A stretch of DNA of 64,000 nucleotides from Candidatus Brockarchaeota archaeon (GCA_017601245.1 JAFNJB010000056.1:4002-68001), one strand, 5' to 3'. Positions 28,134 through 64,000 are shown, numbered from the stretch's first letter. Notes: a model not told the origin generated them from the sequence alone. Numbers and translations: made by a program.

Positions 28134-28532
28134 TTAAATAATTCTCATCACCTCCCCGAATCCTGCTTCCATAATCCTACCCTCCCCCGCAGGGTAAAAA
28201 ACAGGTATTCCAAGAGCCCTAAGCCTCCTACGCAACACGCTGTCGGCTGTCGCAACAGCCGCTTTATAAGTTTTTGCGAGGAAAACCAGGGAATCGTCGC
28301 AATCCATCCCGGTTGGGGGAAGCACCCTAATGTCTTTAACGGTCTCTAACGCTAACCTAGCCATGCCAGCAACTTTATGCCTGCTCGCACTAAGTCTCCT
28401 AAGCTCAACGATTGTTTCAAAGGGCAGTAGCAGTTTCACATTGCCCCCGGTCAGTTCGAAAATCCCCCTCACGAAGTCAATACCCATTTCAAAGGGGGCG
28501 AGGAGAGCACTAGAATCCAGGAGGACAATCAA
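28134..28532 (-). CDS. PIN-domain protein (conserved neighbour of aIF2gamma)
   Basis: VLLDSSALLAP...D...D acidic PIN pattern, 132 aa. Confidence 0.55.
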   Translation of the reverse strand: MIVLLDSSALLAPFEMGIDFVRGIFELTGGNVKLLLPFETIVELRRLSASRHKVAGMARLALETVKDIRVLPPTGMDCDDSLVFLAKTYKAAVATADSVLRRRLRALGIPVFYPAGEGRIMEAGFGEVMRII

Positions 28533-29797
28533 TCTATGATTACACCGTGTCCGATTAGCCTCCAGCGTCTTTCAAAAAGCCTGCTTACCGCAACCCTTTG
28601 ACCCTTCTCTGCGCACACTGGTATTTTAAGGTCAAGCCTAACCCTGTTTTCGCGCACATCCTTAACAGTTGCCTGAGTAAGGGCTGAGCCTACGTTCACG
28701 TTTAAAACCTCCCCTACTCTAAGAGGTTCGTTCTTCACCATGTCTCTTACACCAACAACTCTTTCAAACATGCTATACTCTAGAGTTATGCTTCTGGTAA
28801 CTGGCGGCAAAGTTCCGGGTTTACCGGCAATATTGCCGACTAGCATATCGTTCTTAGTTAGAGAAGGATCTAGCGTTGTACCTATCCCAACTAACCCGCC
28901 GCTCCTAACCTTTTCTACGAAGACATTGTCAAACCCCACTGAGACAACCTCGGCTGTTAACGGGATTGTTTCAACAGTATCATCCTTCTTAACCCTTAAA
29001 CCTGGAAGTATTTCCAACTCATCGCCTACTTTTATCTCACCCCTCACAACGGAGCCGCCTATGACCCCACCGCGCATTTCCGTAGCTTTAGTTCCAGGCC
29101 TATTAACGTCGAAAGACCTTATTACTATCATCCTAGCTGGAGAACTCAAATCGAAGGTTGGCGTTGGAACCTCTTTCTGAATGACATAGAGCAGGATATC
29201 TATGTTAACCTTGTGTTGTGCAGACACAGGCACTATAGTAGCATCAGCATAGCTCGTCTTTGAAAGAAACTGTTTTATTTCCTCCAAGTTTTTTAAAGCC
29301 CTTTCTCTAGAAACAATATCTATCTTATTCTGTACTACAATCAGTTTCTTAATACCCATTATCTCAGCGGCTAGGAGGTGTTCGTATGTTTGAGGCTGAG
29401 GACAGATCTCATCTGCACCTATTACAAGTATCGCAGCATCCATTACAGCTGCTCCGCTCAGCATAGTCGTCATTAGAATCTCGTGGCCAGGAGAATCGAC
29501 GAAGCTTATCTTCCTCTGGAAAACGGCTTCAGAACCACATGAGCATTTTGGAGCCGTAGTATAGTTATACGGCGGTGGGCACTTAGGGCATTGGAAAACA
29601 CTGAAGTTAGCATAGCCAAGTTTTATCGTTATTCCTCTCTTCAACTCATCACTGTGCTTAGCAGTCCAAACTCCAGTAATAGCCTGGACGAGCGTTGTTT
29701 TACCGTGATCTACATGACCAAGCGTTCCAAGATTTAGACAAGGCTGTATATATTTATAGTCCTCGATTTTTAAACCCCCTCCGTAACTATCTTCATA
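28529..29797 (-). CDS. eif2g: Translation initiation factor 2 subunit gamma. True N-terminus (P-loop GHVDHGKTT) lies upstream of the track TTG start; no canonical start codon in frame
   Basis: Own translation upstream of 29644: ...GLKIEDYKYIQPCLNLGTLGHVDHGKTTLVQAITGVWTAKHSDELKRGITIKLGYA..., then zinc ribbon and EF-Tu-like domains. Confidence 0.8.
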   Translation of the reverse strand, partial: YEDSYGGGLKIEDYKYIQPCLNLGTLGHVDHGKTTLVQAITGVWTAKHSDELKRGITIKLGYANFSVFQCPKCPPPYNYTTAPKCSCGSEAVFQRKISFVDSPGHEILMTTMLSGAAVMDAAILVIGADEICPQPQTYEHLLAAEIMGIKKLIVVQNKIDIVSRERALKNLEEIKQFLSKTSYADATIVPVSAQHKVNIDILLYVIQKEVPTPTFDLSSPARMIVIRSFDVNRPGTKATEMRGGVIGGSVVRGEIKVGDELEILPGLRVKKDDTVETIPLTAEVVSVGFDNVFVEKVRSGGLVGIGTTLDPSLTKNDMLVGNIAGKPGTLPPVTRSITLEYSMFERVVGVRDMVKNEPLRVGEVLNVNVGSALTQATVKDVRENRVRLDLKIPVCAEKGQRVAVSRLFERRWRLIGHGVIID

Positions 29798-32969: not shown

Positions 32970-33176
32970 TCACCCTGAGAATCTTCTAGCTTCTCTTTCA
33001 GTCTCCCTTAGCATGAGTATGTCTCCAACTCTAACGGGACCACGAACGTTCCTAAGTATCACTCTACCCCTGTCTCTGCCTGCCAGTATCCTTACTCTAA
33101 CCTGGGTAACCTCACCAGAAGCCCCTGACCTAGCCACTAGTTCGACGACTTCCGCTGGAGTAGCTTCTTCGCTCAA
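32970..33176 (-). CDS. rps28e: 30S ribosomal protein S28e
   Basis: [47 protein letters not shown]. Confidence 0.85.
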
Positions 33177-33565
33177 GATGAGCCTCCACCCGATGATCGC
33201 AGAGCCTCTATCTTCTTAACAACGCTTTCAAGCATTGAGGAGGCTTCACCAGGGTCGATTATCGCTACCGCTGCGGCAGATACATTCGCCAACCCAGCGG
33301 CTTCGCCCAATTGCTTCTTATCCGGTACGACAATATAGGGGATCTTCCTATCCCTACTTAGTAAAGGTATGTGCAAGACTATCTCTACCGGATCCGTATT
33401 GTCAGCTATATAGGCAAGTTTCGCAATACCTCTTTCAAGAGCTTTCGTGGTTTCATTGGTGCCCCTTTTCACCTTACCCGTCTTGGCTGCCAGCCTAAGG
33501 AGCTCTAGAGCCTCTTCCACCAGCTCCTTAGTAGGCTCGTAATCGGCCGTTGTAATCCTAGCCAT
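33173..33565 (-). CDS. rpl7ae: 50S ribosomal protein L7Ae (K-turn binding)
   Basis: [14 protein letters not shown]...IADN..P.EIV.HIPLL. Confidence 0.9.
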
Positions 33566-41112: not shown

Positions 41113-41508
41113 GTGAGCACAGAGCCCGAGAAATACGCTGTTGTAAGAATATACTCCTCCAGTAACAATACTATAGTCCACGCTACTGATCCAAGTGGAG
41201 CCTATACCTTAGCGGTCTCCGCGGCGGGTCAACATGTTAAAGCAGATAGGCTAGGTGGCAGTCCATACGGCGCCATGATGGCAGCAACTGCAGTAGCAGA
41301 GGCTTTGAAAAAACAAGGTATTGAAATCATTAAGATAAGAGTTAGGGCTCCAGGCGGGATCAAGTCAAGGACACCGGGGCAAGGTGCTCAGGCGGCAATA
41401 AGGGCATTGACCAGGGCCAAGCTTAGGATAATATCTATCGAAGATGTGACTCCCATTCCAACCGATGGAACCAGGAAGCCCGGCGGTAGGAGAGGAAGAA
41501 GATTCTAA
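41113..41508 (+). CDS. rps11: 30S ribosomal protein S11 (inverted relative to the rest of the operon)
   Basis: SPYGAMMAA...[27 protein letters not shown]...[19 protein letters not shown]. Confidence 0.85.
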
Positions 41509-42570: not shown

Positions 42571-42672
42571 CGCTGGGGAGGGGATTTGAACCCCTACGGC
42601 GCGTAAGCGCCACAAGCTTACTGAAAACAGGTTCTCCAGGCTTGCGCCTTAGCCAGGTTCGGCCACCCCAGC
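42571..42672 (-). tRNA. tRNA-Ser (anticodon GGA) with long variable arm and about 15-nt intron in the anticodon loop; no encoded CCA
   Basis: Hand-folded: acceptor GCUGGGG/CCCCAGC, G73, T-arm AGGGG-UUCAAAU-CCCCU, variable hairpin GGCGC-UUAC-GCGCC, anticodon stem CAAGC/GCUUG enclosing 22 nt (7-nt loop CUGGA.. plus intron). Confidence 0.6.
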
Positions 42673-43021: not shown

Positions 43022-44018
43022 TCAACCCCAAGTTTTTGGATATAGATTCCTGTCCATGACGACTCTTTCAACCGTTGCAACTATTCCGCTTTTAGCATGA
43101 ATGACCTCATCAGAATCCATTGTTAAAACTCCGAAGCCTACACACTCTCCCTTCAGAGTCTTTATACATACAGTGTCGCCCTTGGCAAGAGGATGATCTA
43201 TTTTAGAAACACCTTTTGCTGCAAGTGGTGCACCGTGCGCCACTGCAGCCACAGCACTATCCTTGATGTATATCGAGGGAAAGCCTTTTAGGGCCTCTTC
43301 TACAGGCCTGACCACCCTTCTTAGAAGCTTGTCGTCACCTTCCCTAGAGTATAAATACCACGCAGCGTACAGCTCGAGTAGTGTAGATGAAGAATCTTCA
43401 TTAAGGAATCCATCTCTCGTCCTTCTCAATTCAACCATGTGAGCACCCACACCCACTAAGAGCCCCAGGTCGTGGAGAAGCTTTCTTATGTAAGTACCCG
43501 GCTCCGTAACTACTCTGAATACGAATCTCCTTTCGACAATGTCCTCTATCGTAAACCTGAGTATAGTCCTCCTTCTTAAAGCCCTCTTTACAGAAGATTT
43601 AACCGGAGGCCTTTGATATATTACTCCGGTTAGTTTCTCAACCCATTTTCTCAAATCCTTCTCTTCGAACTCGCCATGCATCTCGCAGACTCCCACGTAC
43701 TCCTTGCTCATCATATGCAAATACTCAACAGCCTTCGTAGCGTCGTTAAGGCAAATAGGTAACACACCGGAAACGCCGGGATCTCCCCATTTCTTCAAGG
43801 GTCCCGGCGTGGCCGGCCTTCTCTACTCCAAGTATCTTCTTCACAGTCGACGATACGTCATGGCTCGACGGCCCAGGAGGCTTATCAAGATTTATAATGC
43901 CTAGTTTGAGAAGCCTTTCTACACTCCTCTTCTCAGGATACTCTCCGTAATTCGGGTCTGTCTCATACTCCTCCTTTACAATGGTCCTGAATTTAAGAAC
44001 GTCAACGAGGTTTCTCAA
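43022..44018 (-). CDS. cbf5: tRNA pseudouridine synthase Cbf5 (H/ACA RNP), split into two overlapping frames (43746-44018 and 43022-43798) by an apparent frameshift inside TruB motif II
   Basis: N-terminal frame ends ...ILGVEKAGHAGTL|EEMGRSRRF. Second frame begins KKWG|DPGVSGVLPICLNDATKAV and carries the PUA domain. Confidence 0.6.
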
Positions 44019-59179: not shown

Positions 59180-59770
59180 CTATAATCCTATGATGTGAAA
59201 CCACATTTTAACGTTATACTGCTTATGAATATCATATGCTTTTTTAAAGAATTCACCCCATGCTTTCATAAAACTATTCATAGAATCAATATGATGGTCG
59301 ATACGTTGATCAGAAGTCATCTGCTTCTCTTGACAAGGTATTCCGAATCTCCTAATATCCTCTTCAGCTATCATTCTGTCCTCTAGATTATCTTTAGAGA
59401 AGAAAACCTTCGTTAGCAGCATCTTTAATTCATCATCTACTTCTTTAACCTCTAAGACTTCGATTGGCCAGAAAATCTTTAAACCAGGACCATTAGTTTT
59501 TGGATCAACTCTAATATTGTCTGGGCATTTCCTGATAATAACCTTAACTTTATTCATCAAGTAAGAAACATAAGGATCCTTCTTAACTTCCTCGACTTCT
59601 TTCTCTCCATAAGCATAAGCCGAGCGAATAATAGCAGGAACATATTTCAATCTCTTTCTCTCCATAAGCCAAGAAGAACCCGTTGCAGGCATCCATATTT
59701 TCTCTAACTCCTCTTTTATTTTCCCTCGTATTTTAGGCGCAGGCTTAATCACCATCCAGTATTCGGTCAT
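59180..59770 (-). CDS. Hypothetical 196-aa protein, co-transcribed downstream partner of the giant gene
   Basis: 6-nt spacing from giant ORF stop. Has a decayed paralog 2.5 kb away. Confidence 0.5.
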   Translation of the reverse strand: MTEYWMVIKPAPKIRGKIKEELEKIWMPATGSSWLMERKRLKYVPAIIRSAYAYGEKEVEEVKKDPYVSYLMNKVKVIIRKCPDNIRVDPKTNGPGLKIFWPIEVLEVKEVDDELKMLLTKVFFSKDNLEDRMIAEEDIRRFGIPCQEKQMTSDQRIDHHIDSMNSFMKAWGEFFKKAYDIHKQYNVKMWFHIIGL

Positions 59771-59776
59771 TTTACT

Positions 59777-62700
59777 CTATCCTTCATATTTCACGCCACC
59801 TATAAAAACCTCTATAACGTCTGGATATCTCCTCATGAGCTCAACTAAATATTCAAATAGCCTCTCAGCTTCTGGCTCTTGGGGAGCGTGCAGAAAGCTG
59901 TAAATCAGCTTCCAATTATTTTCATCAGCAATTTCAAGATATTTATCAGCTTGGCCTATAAGGTTTCCTGATTCTTCATCTCCGTGTTTACATTCTACTA
60001 TTGCTATCCTTTTGTCTGGTGTTTCCGTTTTAAAATCGAAGTATACATATCTCCTATTACCTAAGTCATATAGACTCTCCTCCTCCAGAATGATATACCC
60101 TAATTTTTCTAAGAGTTCTTTTGTAAACAGCTTTGCAGCAACATGTTGAGACTCGCTTAACACTTTATCTGGAAGAGGCTTGCTTAAGCTTATTACCTTC
60201 CTATGAATCCCCTTGTTATCCTTATATTCAACAACTATTGTATCTTTAAATGCGTACTCGAAAACTTGATTATTTTCACTCAACTTAATCTTAAGCTCCC
60301 CATAGTATTTGATCGGGTTTATTTCCGGTGCTCGTGTTCTTATCGCTAAAGCCAGCTTTGAGGATACTGATTTACCGTCCCTGCCTACATCAATACGAAA
60401 CAGGATTTTTTCACTACTATGCAGAGTTACCTCGAGAATTGGACCATACCCGCTGAGCTCTCTGAAACGGGCTTCGCTTACCTTGAAACCGTTACCGTCG
60501 CTCATACCCTCGACACCGTAGAACTTCAAGTATTCCCCGGAGAGTTCTGCTCTAACACTTCCATCAGAGCTTACTGCGCTAAGCCCGTTCTTCCTTACGA
60601 TTAGTATTCCGAGAACCTCTTCAGCCTCTTTAATCTTGAACTCTGCGTCCGCGCTCTGAGTCCACGCTGAATCTACTCCACCGTCAACCCTACGGTATAC
60701 TATTCCAAGTACCGCGTCCCTATTGCTCAGCTCTTCTCCAAGCCTACGATACTCTTCGCCTATAATTCTCTTCATCATCCCGCTTACGTCAAGGTACTTC
60801 TGGCCACTCCTTATCTCTATGACGTGCTCATCATTGCTTAAGAACACTATTGGTTCTTGAGGGATCCTCCTGTTTAGAGTTATGATTCCACCATACCTGT
60901 CTGAGCCCTCCTCCCTGAGGAATAGGAGCCTTGCCACCTCGCCTCCAGCACCATCTCTCACGGTTTTCAGCTCAACCTCGCCTATCATCGTTCTCCCCCC
61001 ACCGGAGACCAGCATCAGCCTTCCTCCCTCAGTTACTCTGAGCTCGAGCTGCTCCCCGTCTGCATTCGTAACCATGAACCTGATTAGGGCTGAGCCTGCG
61101 TACTCATCCAGTCTCCCCGCGAGCCCCTCAATAATCCTGCCGGTTCTAGTATCAACTAAGTATGCATTGAAGCCGTCTGCCTTCACGAATTTCGACGGGT
61201 ATCTGGCAAGGAAATCATCTATGGTCGCCGGCTTCAAGACTGTTAAGTATGTGCAGCCACTTCTTATCCTGCCGGTTGTTTCCACGGAGGAGAAGCGCAG
61301 GCTCTCCTGCCCATTCACAATCCTCCTTATCTTGTCTACGATAATGCTGCCATCATCAGGATCGTGGACTAAAACAAGGTAAACACCCTCGGGGATATTC
61401 TTAGGAAGCAACAGCCTATCCGAATCGTGGGAGGTTGCAATGAATATTATTGCTCCGCTTTCAAGACTTGCATGCCACGTGTTGAGAAGCCCAGGATCCT
61501 TAACTATAGTATTCAAGAAGGCTTTTGCAACAGTTTCTCCGTAGCTCTCTTTGACTACCAGGTAGGTGTTTAATAGCCTAAGCCTGTTTTCAAAGCTTTC
61601 CCCAACCTTAGCCAGGGCTCTCCCAATGTTTTCAAGCTCTTCCGGGTTTAGCTCAACTGTTCTGGAGAGGAGCCTAGTAGCCTTAGGCAGAGACCACTGG
61701 TCTCCGAGCCCCAGCCAGTTTAGAAGTTCTTCTCCAAACATTCTCGACTTCCGAAATACTCTGCCTATGTCTTCGACAGCCTCGTCTCCGCAACCCGCCC
61801 AAACCGAGACGATTACTCTAACAACCCTACCGCCTTCGACTCTCAGCTCCTCCAGAGAGTATTCTTCAAAGACCAGCCCGATGACGTCCAGTATCTTCCT
61901 CGCGCTCTCCCTTCTCGGAACATTCTCTAGCACTTGCTTCGAAAGCCTTGAGGAAGCGTCAATGGTTTCCTCGAGAATGGAGGGGTCTTCTCCCACCTTC
62001 TCCAGCAGGCTTCCAATGGCTTCGCCGAACCCCCTGCTATACTTGTTTCCCAGAAGGAGGTCTACGATCCTTCCTGCGGAGCCCCTTATCCTCCCCCAGG
62101 TGAGAGTAATAGCATCCCATACGGCTGGTGTTACCCAGTTGTAGACCCCCCTTGCTATTGTTCTCAGTATCTGGCTTGTTGTTAATCTTTGACCTATTCT
62201 CTCAGCCTTCACTCTGTTAACCATTACGAAAAGCGTGACGTAGAGCATACAGGAGACTACTGCGCCTGTGACTCTTCCCCTCGCGTATCCTATCTTATAC
62301 TGCTTCTCAAGCTCGTTCTCAGCTATTGGTTCCTTTAGACCCAGTGCTATTCTTATCTCATCCAGGCTGACGCCGAAGGCGAGGTTTGAGAAGACGTTAA
62401 GCCCTATGTTGCTCATAGTTTCATTTGCTTCTCTCCTCGACGCTACTGCAAGCTCCATGCATTCGGCAGCATGCTCAACCTCGCCTCTGGCCAGGAATTC
62501 TCCAGCTCGTTTTTCAAAGGCCTCAGCGAAGGCGAGCATTTCCTCCCTAGCTTTGTAGGCTTCTTCAACATCTGAAGCCACTTCCATGAGGTTCGACAAT
62601 ACGTCAATACCCAGCATGAGATAGTAAGCATATCTCACGTATGCCTTTGGGATCAGGAAGCTTACTGCAATCATCATACCAGCGGTAATAGCTATCCCCG

Positions 62701-64000
62701 GCAGCTTTGTTAGCAGGCCATCCCAGAAGCCCTTCCAAAACACCGCCGTCTTAAGGGCGAGGGAAACCTTTACTGCCGCAACTACTCTACCATCTTTAAC
62801 GAGTTCGAAAACAGCCTCTCCAACCGCGGGCTCCCGCTGGATTAGTAAAACGGAGCCCGTAGAAGTTTTGTTTAGAGTAATGCTCCCGCTGCTCTCTCTG
62901 GTCTGAGTAAAGAAGAGGAAGTGGTTTGTAGCCGTCTTAAGCCTAAGCGAGTAGCTTACGTTAGTGTTTGCATAATTCCTCAGGGCTATGCCGTGTAGTA
63001 ACTCCCCCCTGTTAATTTTCAGAGGACTGTAGAATAGTTTGATGGATTTGCATTCGCCGATTGTCCTACTCGTTACAGTGTATCCCCAATCCACCTCGCC
63101 CGAGTCGATGAAAATGCTGTTCCCCCTCTTCCACCCGAGCCTAGCCAACTGCTCATACTCTTCGCTTGAAACCCATACCGTCTCATTGCTTACTTTTTCT
63201 CCGACGAACCTTACACTCCAACCCATAGCTCCGCTCTGGTTAAGCTTCCCGTAGAAGGGATGTTGGGAAAGAACCTTCAACTCGTCTTCGCTCAAAACCC
63301 TGCTTAGGATCGTTTTCTCAATGCCCGTGGTCTTATTGAAACACAGCAGAAACGTGTTCTTGAAGTCGTCTACGATTAATTCCACCGTTAAGCTTCCACC
63401 ATTAGTCCACTTTATCCAATGCTCCGAGACATACTCGCCCTCCCTCAAGACAAGCCAGGGTAGAACTATCCATCCGCCACCGTGCCCTATAACCAGCTTA
63501 ACCCGCTCAGTATCCTTCGTAACCTTCAGGTTCTTACGCATATGGAGCCAATAGTAGTCAACCTCCCTCCCGTTGAAATTAATCCTGTAAGCCTTATGCT
63601 CTAGAATCTCCAAGCTTAACACAATGCCGTAGAGGGGCATGTTGAAGAATAACCGTGAGGAAACAGGACTACCCAGGTCCGGGAGGTAAGCATTGATCAC
63701 ATTACCTTTAAAATCGCCATCTACGCTTAACACTGCCTTCGATAAACCACCTGTCTCGCCAGCGTAAGTTACGTTGTAGAGCTTGCGGGCATTTAGCGAA
63801 ATATTATAGTACCTTATGCAGGTCACGTTGTAAAGCTTGACTCTCTTCTTAACACCCTTAACCTCGTAGTAAGCAGAGGGTAGAGGGAAATTACAGACTA
63901 ACGGGATTTCAACAGAAACCTCCCCGTCGTCAAGATTACGTGAAACACGAAGATTGGAGTAGTCGACTAAAACACGATTGTCATTGATTTGAAGCTCCCT
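59777..64000 (-). CDS. Giant membrane protein (longer than 1400 aa, N-terminus beyond window) with sequon-rich extracellular N-domain, TM helices and cytoplasmic C-terminal PD-(D/E)xK nuclease-like domain
   Basis: Frame stays open from 63826 to 64000, so the track GTG start is internal. Hydrophobic helices GIAITAGMMIAVSFLIP, YYLMLGIDVLSNL and VTGAVVSCMLYVTLFVMV. C-terminus YVYFDF..PDKRIAIVECKHG..QADKY. Confidence 0.7.
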   Translation of the reverse strand, partial: RELQINDNRVLVDYSNLRVSRNLDDGEVSVEIPLVCNFPLPSAYYEVKGVKKRVKLYNVTCIRYYNISLNARKLYNVTYAGETGGLSKAVLSVDGDFKGNVINAYLPDLGSPVSSRLFFNMPLYGIVLSLEILEHKAYRINFNGREVDYYWLHMRKNLKVTKDTERVKLVIGHGGGWIVLPWLVLREGEYVSEHWIKWTNGGSLTVELIVDDFKNTFLLCFNKTTGIEKTILSRVLSEDELKVLSQHPFYGKLNQSGAMGWSVRFVGEKVSNETVWVSSEEYEQLARLGWKRGNSIFIDSGEVDWGYTVTSRTIGECKSIKLFYSPLKINRGELLHGIALRNYANTNVSYSLRLKTATNHFLFFTQTRESSGSITLNKTSTGSVLLIQREPAVGEAVFELVKDGRVVAAVKVSLALKTAVFWKGFWDGLLTKLPGIAITAGMMIAVSFLIPKAYVRYAYYLMLGIDVLSNLMEVASDVEEAYKAREEMLAFAEAFEKRAGEFLARGEVEHAAECMELAVASRREANETMSNIGLNVFSNLAFGVSLDEIRIALGLKEPIAENELEKQYKIGYARGRVTGAVVSCMLYVTLFVMVNRVKAERIGQRLTTSQILRTIARGVYNWVTPAVWDAITLTWGRIRGSAGRIVDLLLGNKYSRGFGEAIGSLLEKVGEDPSILEETIDASSRLSKQVLENVPRRESARKILDVIGLVFEEYSLEELRVEGGRVVRVIVSVWAGCGDEAVEDIGRVFRKSRMFGEELLNWLGLGDQWSLPKATRLLSRTVELNPEELENIGRALAKVGESFENRLRLLNTYLVVKESYGETVAKAFLNTIVKDPGLLNTWHASLESGAIIFIATSHDSDRLLLPKNIPEGVYLVLVHDPDDGSIIVDKIRRIVNGQESLRFSSVETTGRIRSGCTYLTVLKPATIDDFLARYPSKFVKADGFNAYLVDTRTGRIIEGLAGRLDEYAGSALIRFMVTNADGEQLELRVTEGGRLMLVSGGGRTMIGEVELKTVRDGAGGEVARLLFLREEGSDRYGGIITLNRRIPQEPIVFLSNDEHVIEIRSGQKYLDVSGMMKRIIGEEYRRLGEELSNRDAVLGIVYRRVDGGVDSAWTQSADAEFKIKEAEEVLGILIVRKNGLSAVSSDGSVRAELSGEYLKFYGVEGMSDGNGFKVSEARFRELSGYGPILEVTLHSSEKILFRIDVGRDGKSVSSKLALAIRTRAPEINPIKYYGELKIKLSENNQVFEYAFKDTIVVEYKDNKGIHRKVISLSKPLPDKVLSESQHVAAKLFTKELLEKLGYIILEEESLYDLGNRRYVYFDFKTETPDKRIAIVECKHGDEESGNLIGQADKYLEIADENNWKLIYSFLHAPQEPEAERLFEYLVELMRRYPDVIEVFIGGVKYEG

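Follow-up and report, generated by a model that had tools for sequence, protein, structure and literature searches.

The gene for the H/ACA pseudouridine synthase Cbf5 in this Candidatus Brockarchaeota archaeon shows an apparent frameshift at the codon of the catalytic Asp, and we consider it very likely that this interruption is a 13-nt BHB intron, which would be removed from the cbf5 pre-mRNA by the tRNA splicing endonuclease. The actual cleavage, the ligation and the enzymes performing them we infer from the sequence. [quoted passage not shown] Splicing of the cbf5 intron has been demonstrated by cDNA and by EndA cleavage in Sulfolobus, Aeropyrum and a few Desulfurococcales (PMC2738675; PMC10485636). 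The published cbf5 introns are 16-44 bp in size and come from Sulfolobales and Desulfurococcales only; none was found in Thermoproteales, Nitrosopumilus, Cenarchaeum or Korarchaeum (PMC2738675). Both the mechanism and the site are already known, and what appears to be new in the present case is the host lineage, the length of 13 nt, and the one-pair inner helix with a GNRA loop. To our knowledge, the cbf5 intron is the only classical protein-coding BHB intron.

We refer to the whole stretch of DNA that was analysed, 64,000 nucleotides in length, as the window. In the window, cbf5 is located on the minus strand at 44018..43022, and its frame is broken between GHAGTL and DPGVSGVLPI by 13 nt. The two ORFs that are read directly from the DNA, and the two exons that we predict, are as follows.

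44018..43746, minus strand: ORF 1, 90 aa; 74 N-terminal Cbf5 residues to ...KAGHAGTL, then 16 codons in a dead frame, EEMGRSRRFRCVTYLP, and a stop
43798..43022, minus strand: ORF 2, 258 aa; (M)KKWGDPGVSGVLPI..., i.e. KKWG-DPGVSGVLPICLNDATK..., to the natural C-terminus
43796..44018, minus strand: predicted cbf5 exon 1, with DKCLD and the start of TruB_N, ending in ...KAGHAGTL plus G (ORF and translation, Pfam)
43022..43782, minus strand: predicted cbf5 exon 2, with AU (letters 2 and 3 of the Asp codon), PGVSGVLPI..., the rest of TruB_N, TruB_C_2, PUA and the stop (ORF and translation, Pfam, tblastn)

The start of exon 1 is assumed to be the TTG at 44018, and the last base of this exon, G 43796, would be the first letter of the catalytic Asp codon. 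In the original prediction, a Cbf5 gene split inside the catalytic TruB motif, somewhere in 43740-43810, was described as carrying about 13 extra nucleotides. This description is borne out by our results: the junction lies in that interval, the break falls between GHAGTL and DPGV, and deletion of 13 nt (43796..43784, GAAGAAATGGGGA, which is equivalent to 43795..43783, AAGAAATGGGGAG) produces a single ORF of 327 aa with the intact motif GHAGTLDPGVSGVLPI. The dead frame after GHAGTL had also been recognized correctly, but the tail in this frame has 16 codons and not the nine (EEMGRSRRF) that had been given. The restored ORF contains DKCLD, TruB_N, TruB_C_2 and PUA, the complete set of domains of archaeal Cbf5 (Pfam), and it is by these domains of the spliced product, together with the homologues named Cbf5, that the host gene is identified as cbf5.

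The RNA around the junction is predicted to fold into a splice element, the parts of which are listed here with a slash at the predicted cut.

43766..43817, minus strand: whole splice element (fold, pair counts across 23 sequences, frozen paired synonymous sites)
43817..43813 with 43770..43766, minus strand: outer helix, 5 bp (RNA fold)
43810..43802 with 43781..43773, minus strand: helix h, 9 bp, ACGCCGGGA with UCCCGGCGU (perfect inverted repeat around the junction)
43801..43798 with 43788..43785, minus strand: central helix H, 4 bp, CCCU with GGGG (RNA fold), formed by exon 1 and the 3' part of the intron
43797-43796/43795, minus strand: predicted 5' splice site, UG/A
43784-43783/43782, minus strand: predicted 3' bulge, AG/A
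43783..43795, minus strand: predicted BHB intron of 13 nt, 5'-AAGAAAUGGGGAG-3' (fold, with the boundary from relatives)

For the 61 nt around the junction, the MFE is -32.1 kcal/mol (z = -3.9), and none of 200 shuffled sequences folds as well. The MFE fold consists of the outer 5-bp helix, the 9-bp helix with CCCU/GGGG stacked on it (on the 5' strand), a 3-nt AGA bulge (on the 3' strand), and a 9-nt loop. The 5' half of the putative intron would comprise A 43795 as the third base of the 5' bulge, a lone A-U pair (43794/43789) and a GAAA tetraloop (43793..43790), and its 3' half would comprise GGGG 43788..43785, the 3' strand of the central helix, and AG 43784..43783, the first two bases of the 3' bulge. 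In each bulge of a BHB structure, the cut follows the second base and precedes the third (PMC2738675). When this rule is applied here, the result is the in-frame junction ...CUU G (13 nt) AU CCC..., and the predicted junction divides the catalytic Asp codon after its first letter, so that exon 1 would supply the G and exon 2 the AU.

A canonical hBHBh' motif is said to have two 3-nt bulges, a 4-bp helix between them, and flanking helices h and h' of at least 2 bp each. Of these parts, the cbf5 element of the window has h (9 bp), H (4 bp) and the 3' bulge, whereas its h' consists of one A-U pair at most. We thus regard the motif as relaxed (hBH) and not canonical, because the 5' site sits in the 9-nt loop of the MFE fold and turns into a 3-nt bulge only when the lone A-U pair closes a GNRA tetraloop. 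Relaxed hBH and HBh' forms reportedly occur among the BHB introns of archaeal tRNA. The fold, the pair counts and the frozen synonymous sites all agree with a relaxed BHB at this position. Most of the known cbf5 structures are unconventional BHBs that need the hetero-oligomeric endonuclease (PMC2738675).

A scan of the genome collection with the spliced protein gave 51 loci. The closest relatives are 13 loci with 74-91% amino-acid identity, which together with L015 represent 14 clade genomes; these are MAGs that carry the label Candidatus Brockarchaeota, Thermoproteota or (two of them) Nitrososphaerota, and their nucleotide identity to the window, with which they are colinear, is 71-84%. In every one of the 14, the insert is at the same codon and is exactly 13 nt long, and the differences among their inserts are limited to the tetraloop (GAAA, GCAA or GCGA, all GNRA) and the last intron base (G or A). 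The last base is A in four of the 14 (L002, L005, L006 and L010), and in 27 of the 58 intron-bearing loci among those collected, including the metagenome matches listed. Where it is A, a deletion of 13 nt or a frameshift reads AAU (Asn), and only splicing with the G of exon 1 gives Asp; thus, the boundary is fixed. When this BHB boundary was applied, GHxGTLDPxVxGxLP was intact in 23 of 23 intron-bearing genes.

More distant relatives have an insert at the same site, with 16 nt in L017, 17-20 nt in five Nitrososphaerota-type MAGs, and 22 nt in three Caldarchaeales MAGs; the intron was absent from the euryarchaeal and DPANN relatives among the loci of the genome collection. In a scan of metagenomes with a junction pattern, at least 34 true cbf5 junctions were found among the 120 matches listed. 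The invariant exon arms and GGGGAR of these 34 loci exist by construction, because the pattern fixed them, and only the lengths and the interiors are informative. The metagenome introns are 13-33 nt in size, and none is shorter than 13 nt among the matches listed, though the pattern allowed 7 nt. Contigs L112 and L138 also carry a 13-nt insert, and two further 13-nt types (ggauaacggggaa in L126 and ggguaacggggaa in L082) were found in genes with the motif GHSGTL. Introns of 14-33 nt at the identical codon position were observed in L017, L020-L022, L029, L036, L038, L040 and L042 and in metagenome loci L057-L170; the hosts are Caldarchaeales and other MAGs labelled Nitrososphaerota or Thermoproteota, and the metagenomes are from hot springs, sediments and other sources. 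The length of 13 nt is below the published range of 16-44 and is the shortest so far, as the minimum among the loci collected, including the matches listed.

A BHB-type fold was predicted independently in most of the 23 intron-bearing orthologues. It is not the MFE fold for some G-rich relatives (L052 and L040), and for L052 (RNAfold z = -0.86) the folding of a single sequence is not decisive, because the G-rich flanks permit competing folds. In a fixed-register alignment (A1) of the exon arms and intron ends of 23 sequences, standard pairs occupy 96.4% of the cells, versus 38-61% when the partners are slid by 1-3 columns. One exon-helix pair in this alignment is C-G in 13 sequences and G-C in eight. 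Since this switch is at second codon positions, it results in a coupled swap of residues, from GHAGTL...DPGV to GHGGTL...DPAV. Changes on both sides were observed in only two pairs of the exon helices, a count that is not significant against shuffles; the covariation there is modest because of the coding constraint.

A signal stronger than the exon-helix covariation comes from the paired synonymous sites, which are frozen in the intron-bearing genes only. Gly is encoded by GGG, Thr by ACC, Asp by GAT and Pro by CCY in 23/23 intron-bearing genes each, versus 1/24, 0/24, 5/24 and 1/24, respectively, in intron-less archaeal genes. The Gly and Val codons next to these sites are free to vary, with or without the intron. 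As for the intron interiors, 166 pairs were counted from the ends inward in 47 distinct introns (58 loci, including the metagenome matches listed), versus 30 +/- 6.6, with a maximum of 58, in 2000 shuffles. An inner hairpin is present in all of the longer introns (16-33 nt) among the loci collected, with quite different helix sequences, and h' has 3-10 bp in the longer relatives of 17-33 nt. In the seven distinct 13-nt introns, the lone closing pair around the tetraloop is A-U or G-C.

The original prediction offered three candidates for the split, a real disruption, a programmed frameshift and an indel error, and did not list a BHB intron. None of the three fits, whereas a BHB intron fits all of the observations. 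A programmed +1 ribosomal frameshift, or bypassing, within the 13 nt would yield the product GHAGTL-EEMG-DPGV..., with an insertion of four residues in the catalytic loop. The two ORFs do overlap and are +1 apart, the insert is a short one, and ribosomes could pause at the AGA codon that follows GGG. However, we consider such decoding very improbable. The triplet before CCC is AAU or AAC in the four clade relatives named above, in L017 and in L022 (27 of the 58 loci collected in all), and in these the shifted reading puts Asn, not Asp, at the catalytic position. The catalytic Asp is known to be required in every pseudouridine synthase family. Furthermore, neither a conserved slippery motif or pause signal nor a functional shifted product was found, and no pair of matching take-off and landing codons exists that would permit bypassing. 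The insert lengths (13-33 nt) include all three remainders on division by 3, so that no single frameshift rule can account for them, and the covariation of an RNA hairpin of free sequence suits splicing, not decoding.

The gene could instead be a pseudogene, or be in the course of loss, and the interruption a genuine disruption. The broken frame within the catalytic motif points in this direction, as does the finding that the 64-kb window, when searched for a second cbf5 or truB as had been suggested, contained none. We regard a disruption as highly unlikely, however, since both halves of cbf5 are under strong purifying selection. Against relatives, dN/dS is about 0.03-0.08 on both exons, and not near 1, with synonymous sites near saturation. 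In place of lineage-specific, non-conserved lesions, the same interruption is retained at 71-84% DNA identity (genomes 16-29% apart in nucleotides) and across deep lineages. The domains are intact after removal of the 13 nt, and the gene lies within a conserved ribosomal operon, the order around it being secY - EMC3-like - cmk - L14e - cbf5 - tRNA - S13 - S4 - S11 - rpoD - L18e - L13 - S9.

A sequencing or assembly artefact, such as an indel in a G-run or a mis-join, is extremely unlikely: although the insert has a GGGG run and the source is probably a metagenome-assembled genome, 13 nt is no homopolymer miscount, and the same length at the same codon, with substitutions within the insert, was found in 14 independent assemblies from different projects and studies, and in L112 and L138 as well. 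That the enzyme is naturally split, with polypeptides of 90 and 258 aa assembling in trans, is hardly conceivable: although both ORFs are there and the second is annotated on its own as 'Cbf5' by public pipelines, the break would cut the catalytic GTLD loop, the start of ORF 2 is a TTG inside the insert only, the second fragment of the relatives with A as the last base would have Asn for Asp (P0005 begins MKQWGNPGV), and the conserved RNA structure would be left without explanation.

The close public Cbf5 records of the clade (P0001-P0013) are all fragments of exon 2 only, 230-263 aa in size. Some of them begin within the intron and show Asn where the catalytic Asp should be; an example is P0005, which is named 'Cbf5' in NCBI and starts, with intron sequence translated, as MKQWGNPGVSG. 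These exon-2-only records are a systematic annotation error, and inference based on genomes would thus mistake an essential H/ACA enzyme for a truncated or dead one.

A protein search with a fragment of S. solfataricus Cbf5, which was derived by OCR from the 2009 supplement, returned no named Sulfolobales protein; one match, P0212, led to contig L052. This contig was recognized as Sulfolobales-like by the signatures RVGHGGTLD, IGLxxATK and VHC of the Sulfolobales rows in the 2009 alignment. The junction of L052 is GGGACCCUAG/agccccuuuaauggggcggggag/ACCCC and that of the window is GGGACCCUUG/aagaaauggggag/AUCCC, both with the pattern a...ggggag, and the junction of L029 is GGGACCCUAG/agccccgaugggugggggag/AUCCC. 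The exon arms and the GGGGAG 3' end shared by the introns of L052, L029 and the window argue for their homology. L052 also has an apparent frameshift later in exon 2 (621-1369 of the ENA contig, with gene calls at 621-929 and 926-1369), which is probably an assembly error unrelated to the intron.

In the process that we propose for the BHB intron of the window, cbf5 would be transcribed with the 13-nt insert present. At the catalytic Asp codon of the pre-mRNA, CCCU of exon 1 would pair with GGGG of the intron to form the 4-bp central helix, and with the 9-bp exon-exon helix below it, the splice sites would be displayed in the 3-nt bulge AG/A and the bulge or loop UG/A. EndA would then cut after the second base of each site (UG/A and AG/A) and release AAGAAAUGGGGAG, and an RtcB-type RNA ligase would join ...CUU G to AU CCC.... 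Ligation would create the GAU codon for Asp and an in-frame Cbf5 of 327 aa, with AGHAGTLDPGVSGVLPICLNDATK across the junction. Among the approximately 60 ORFs of the window scanned with Pfam, EndA, RtcB, Nop10 and Gar1 were not found.

The window contains another short intron, in a tRNA gene near cbf5, and also a gene for a protein partner of Cbf5.

42571..42672, minus strand: tRNA-Ser(GGA), class II (Rfam tRNA, 45.8 bits), 350 nt downstream of cbf5
42633..42619, minus strand: intron of 15 nt in the anticodon loop of tRNA-Ser, AACCUGUUUUCAGUA (sequence)
33173..33565, minus strand: L7Ae, partner of Cbf5 in the H/ACA RNP (Pfam Ribosomal_L7Ae, E = 5e-26)

Like the cbf5 element, the tRNA-Ser intron has a helix-bulge-helix-loop arrangement, here with the central helix CUGG/UCAG and the bulges AG/A and UA/A, and has no inner helix. 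This tRNA-Ser is conserved in L001-L005, in which the gene lengths imply introns of 11-16 nt. From the relaxed tRNA-Ser intron of the window and the short introns implied for L001-L005, it follows that the lineage would depend on an endonuclease able to process BHB introns that are both very short and relaxed. The intron of the window also points indirectly to a broad-specificity enzyme, which may be hetero-oligomeric (alpha-beta) or of the epsilon type. ARAGORN reported no tRNA in the window; this is a limitation of the tool, because Rfam then found the intron-bearing tRNA-Ser. No H/ACA guide or other sRNA was found in the window with Rfam at gathering thresholds. The product of the L7Ae gene is a component of both H/ACA and C/D RNPs; the gene is 10 kb away from cbf5 and is given as context only, not as part of the splice element.

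Several other features of the window were noted. The gene for S11 (Pfam E = 8e-35; 41113-41508, plus strand) is located in the otherwise minus-strand cluster S13-S4-[S11]-RpoD-L18e-L13-S9 and converges on S4 with an overlap of 4 nt. The region is colinear with L001-L005, and an inversion of the single S11 gene seems to be common to the clade. In the gene for aIF2-gamma, the P-loop (GHVDHGKTTL) is in frame upstream of the first ATG, GTG or TTG (29644-29770, minus strand; ORF 28529-29644), and the stretch from the last stop before it, where the S6e gene ends, up to the P-loop contains no canonical start codon. Translation may therefore begin at a non-canonical codon (ATC or ATA, preceded by a GGAGG-like motif) or be initiated in some other unusual way. 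We considered aIF2-gamma as a second split gene and rejected this, as the P-loop is in frame upstream and only the canonical start is missing. An ORF of 1349 aa (59777-63826, minus strand) and an adjacent ORF of 196 aa (59180-59770, minus strand) had no Pfam match at E <= 0.001.

The putative intron of the window shares the host gene and the insertion point with the cbf5 intron of Sulfolobales and Desulfurococcales (Watanabe et al. 2002; Yoshinari et al. 2006; Yokobori et al. 2009), and also the relaxed BHB in which exon 1 is paired with the 3' end of the intron and the cut follows the second bulge base. However, the host here is the Brockarchaeota clade, outside both orders, the size is 13 nt versus 16-44 bp, and h' is cut down to one A-U pair with a GNRA cap. 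It thus lies outside the range described so far (Sulfolobales and Desulfurococcales, 16-44 bp), but these limits are descriptive, so that the family is extended and membership in it is not excluded. The structural logic and the cleavage geometry of the cbf5 element are the same as those of archaeal tRNA BHB introns, which are processed by EndA and RtcB, but the cbf5 substrate is the coding region of an mRNA. Since the exon arms must also encode GHAGTL and DPGV, synonymous sites are frozen and two amino-acid positions are coupled. Another mRNA that is processed by the tRNA splicing endonuclease is that of Haloferax volcanii HVO_1309, which has a BHB intron in the 5' UTR (Schwarz et al. 2020, PMC7714728). 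In contrast to cbf5, that intron is euryarchaeal, lies in an untranslated region, is cleaved by an alpha2 enzyme, and interrupts no codon (PMC7714728). The Brockarchaeota genome paper makes no mention of introns, and our phrase searches of the literature found no other report of a cbf5 intron in Brockarchaeota, Caldarchaeales or other Nitrososphaerota-labelled lineages.

In the 2009 study, the cbf5 intron was dated to the ancestor of Sulfolobales and Desulfurococcales (PMC2738675). The presence of the intron in Brockarchaeota, Caldarchaeales and other lineages reopens the dating of its origin. In a crude NJ tree, intron-less lineages separate the intron-bearing genes into two or more deep clusters; this tree is not strong enough to tell one ancient gain from several. 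We tentatively suggest, as a possibility to which we would give somewhat less than even chances, that the cbf5 intron is much older, or has repeatedly spread, within Thermoproteati (TACK), with repeated losses, and is not an innovation of Sulfolobales and Desulfurococcales. The basis of this suggestion is that the codon position is identical, and the exon arms and the 3' end of the intron nearly so, in Brockarchaeota, Caldarchaeales (Aigarchaeota), Nitrososphaerota-labelled lineages, and sediment and hot-spring metagenomes. If it is true, the 13-nt form (1 + 1 bp + tetraloop + 4 + 2) would represent the practical lower size limit of an mRNA substrate for the archaeal splicing endonuclease, and a functional link between the synthesis of Cbf5 and the RNA-splicing capacity of the cell could be the reason why the intron has stayed at the catalytic codon of this RNA-modification enzyme.

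The misannotation seen for Cbf5 may extend to any archaeal gene with a short BHB intron. A 13-nt intron with an inner helix of one pair would also be a compact natural substrate for testing the requirements of the broad-specificity splicing endonuclease. Furthermore, the exon arms show how the structure of an RNA can constrain the sequence of a protein, in the form of the coupled A/G and G/A residues on either side of the catalytic loop.
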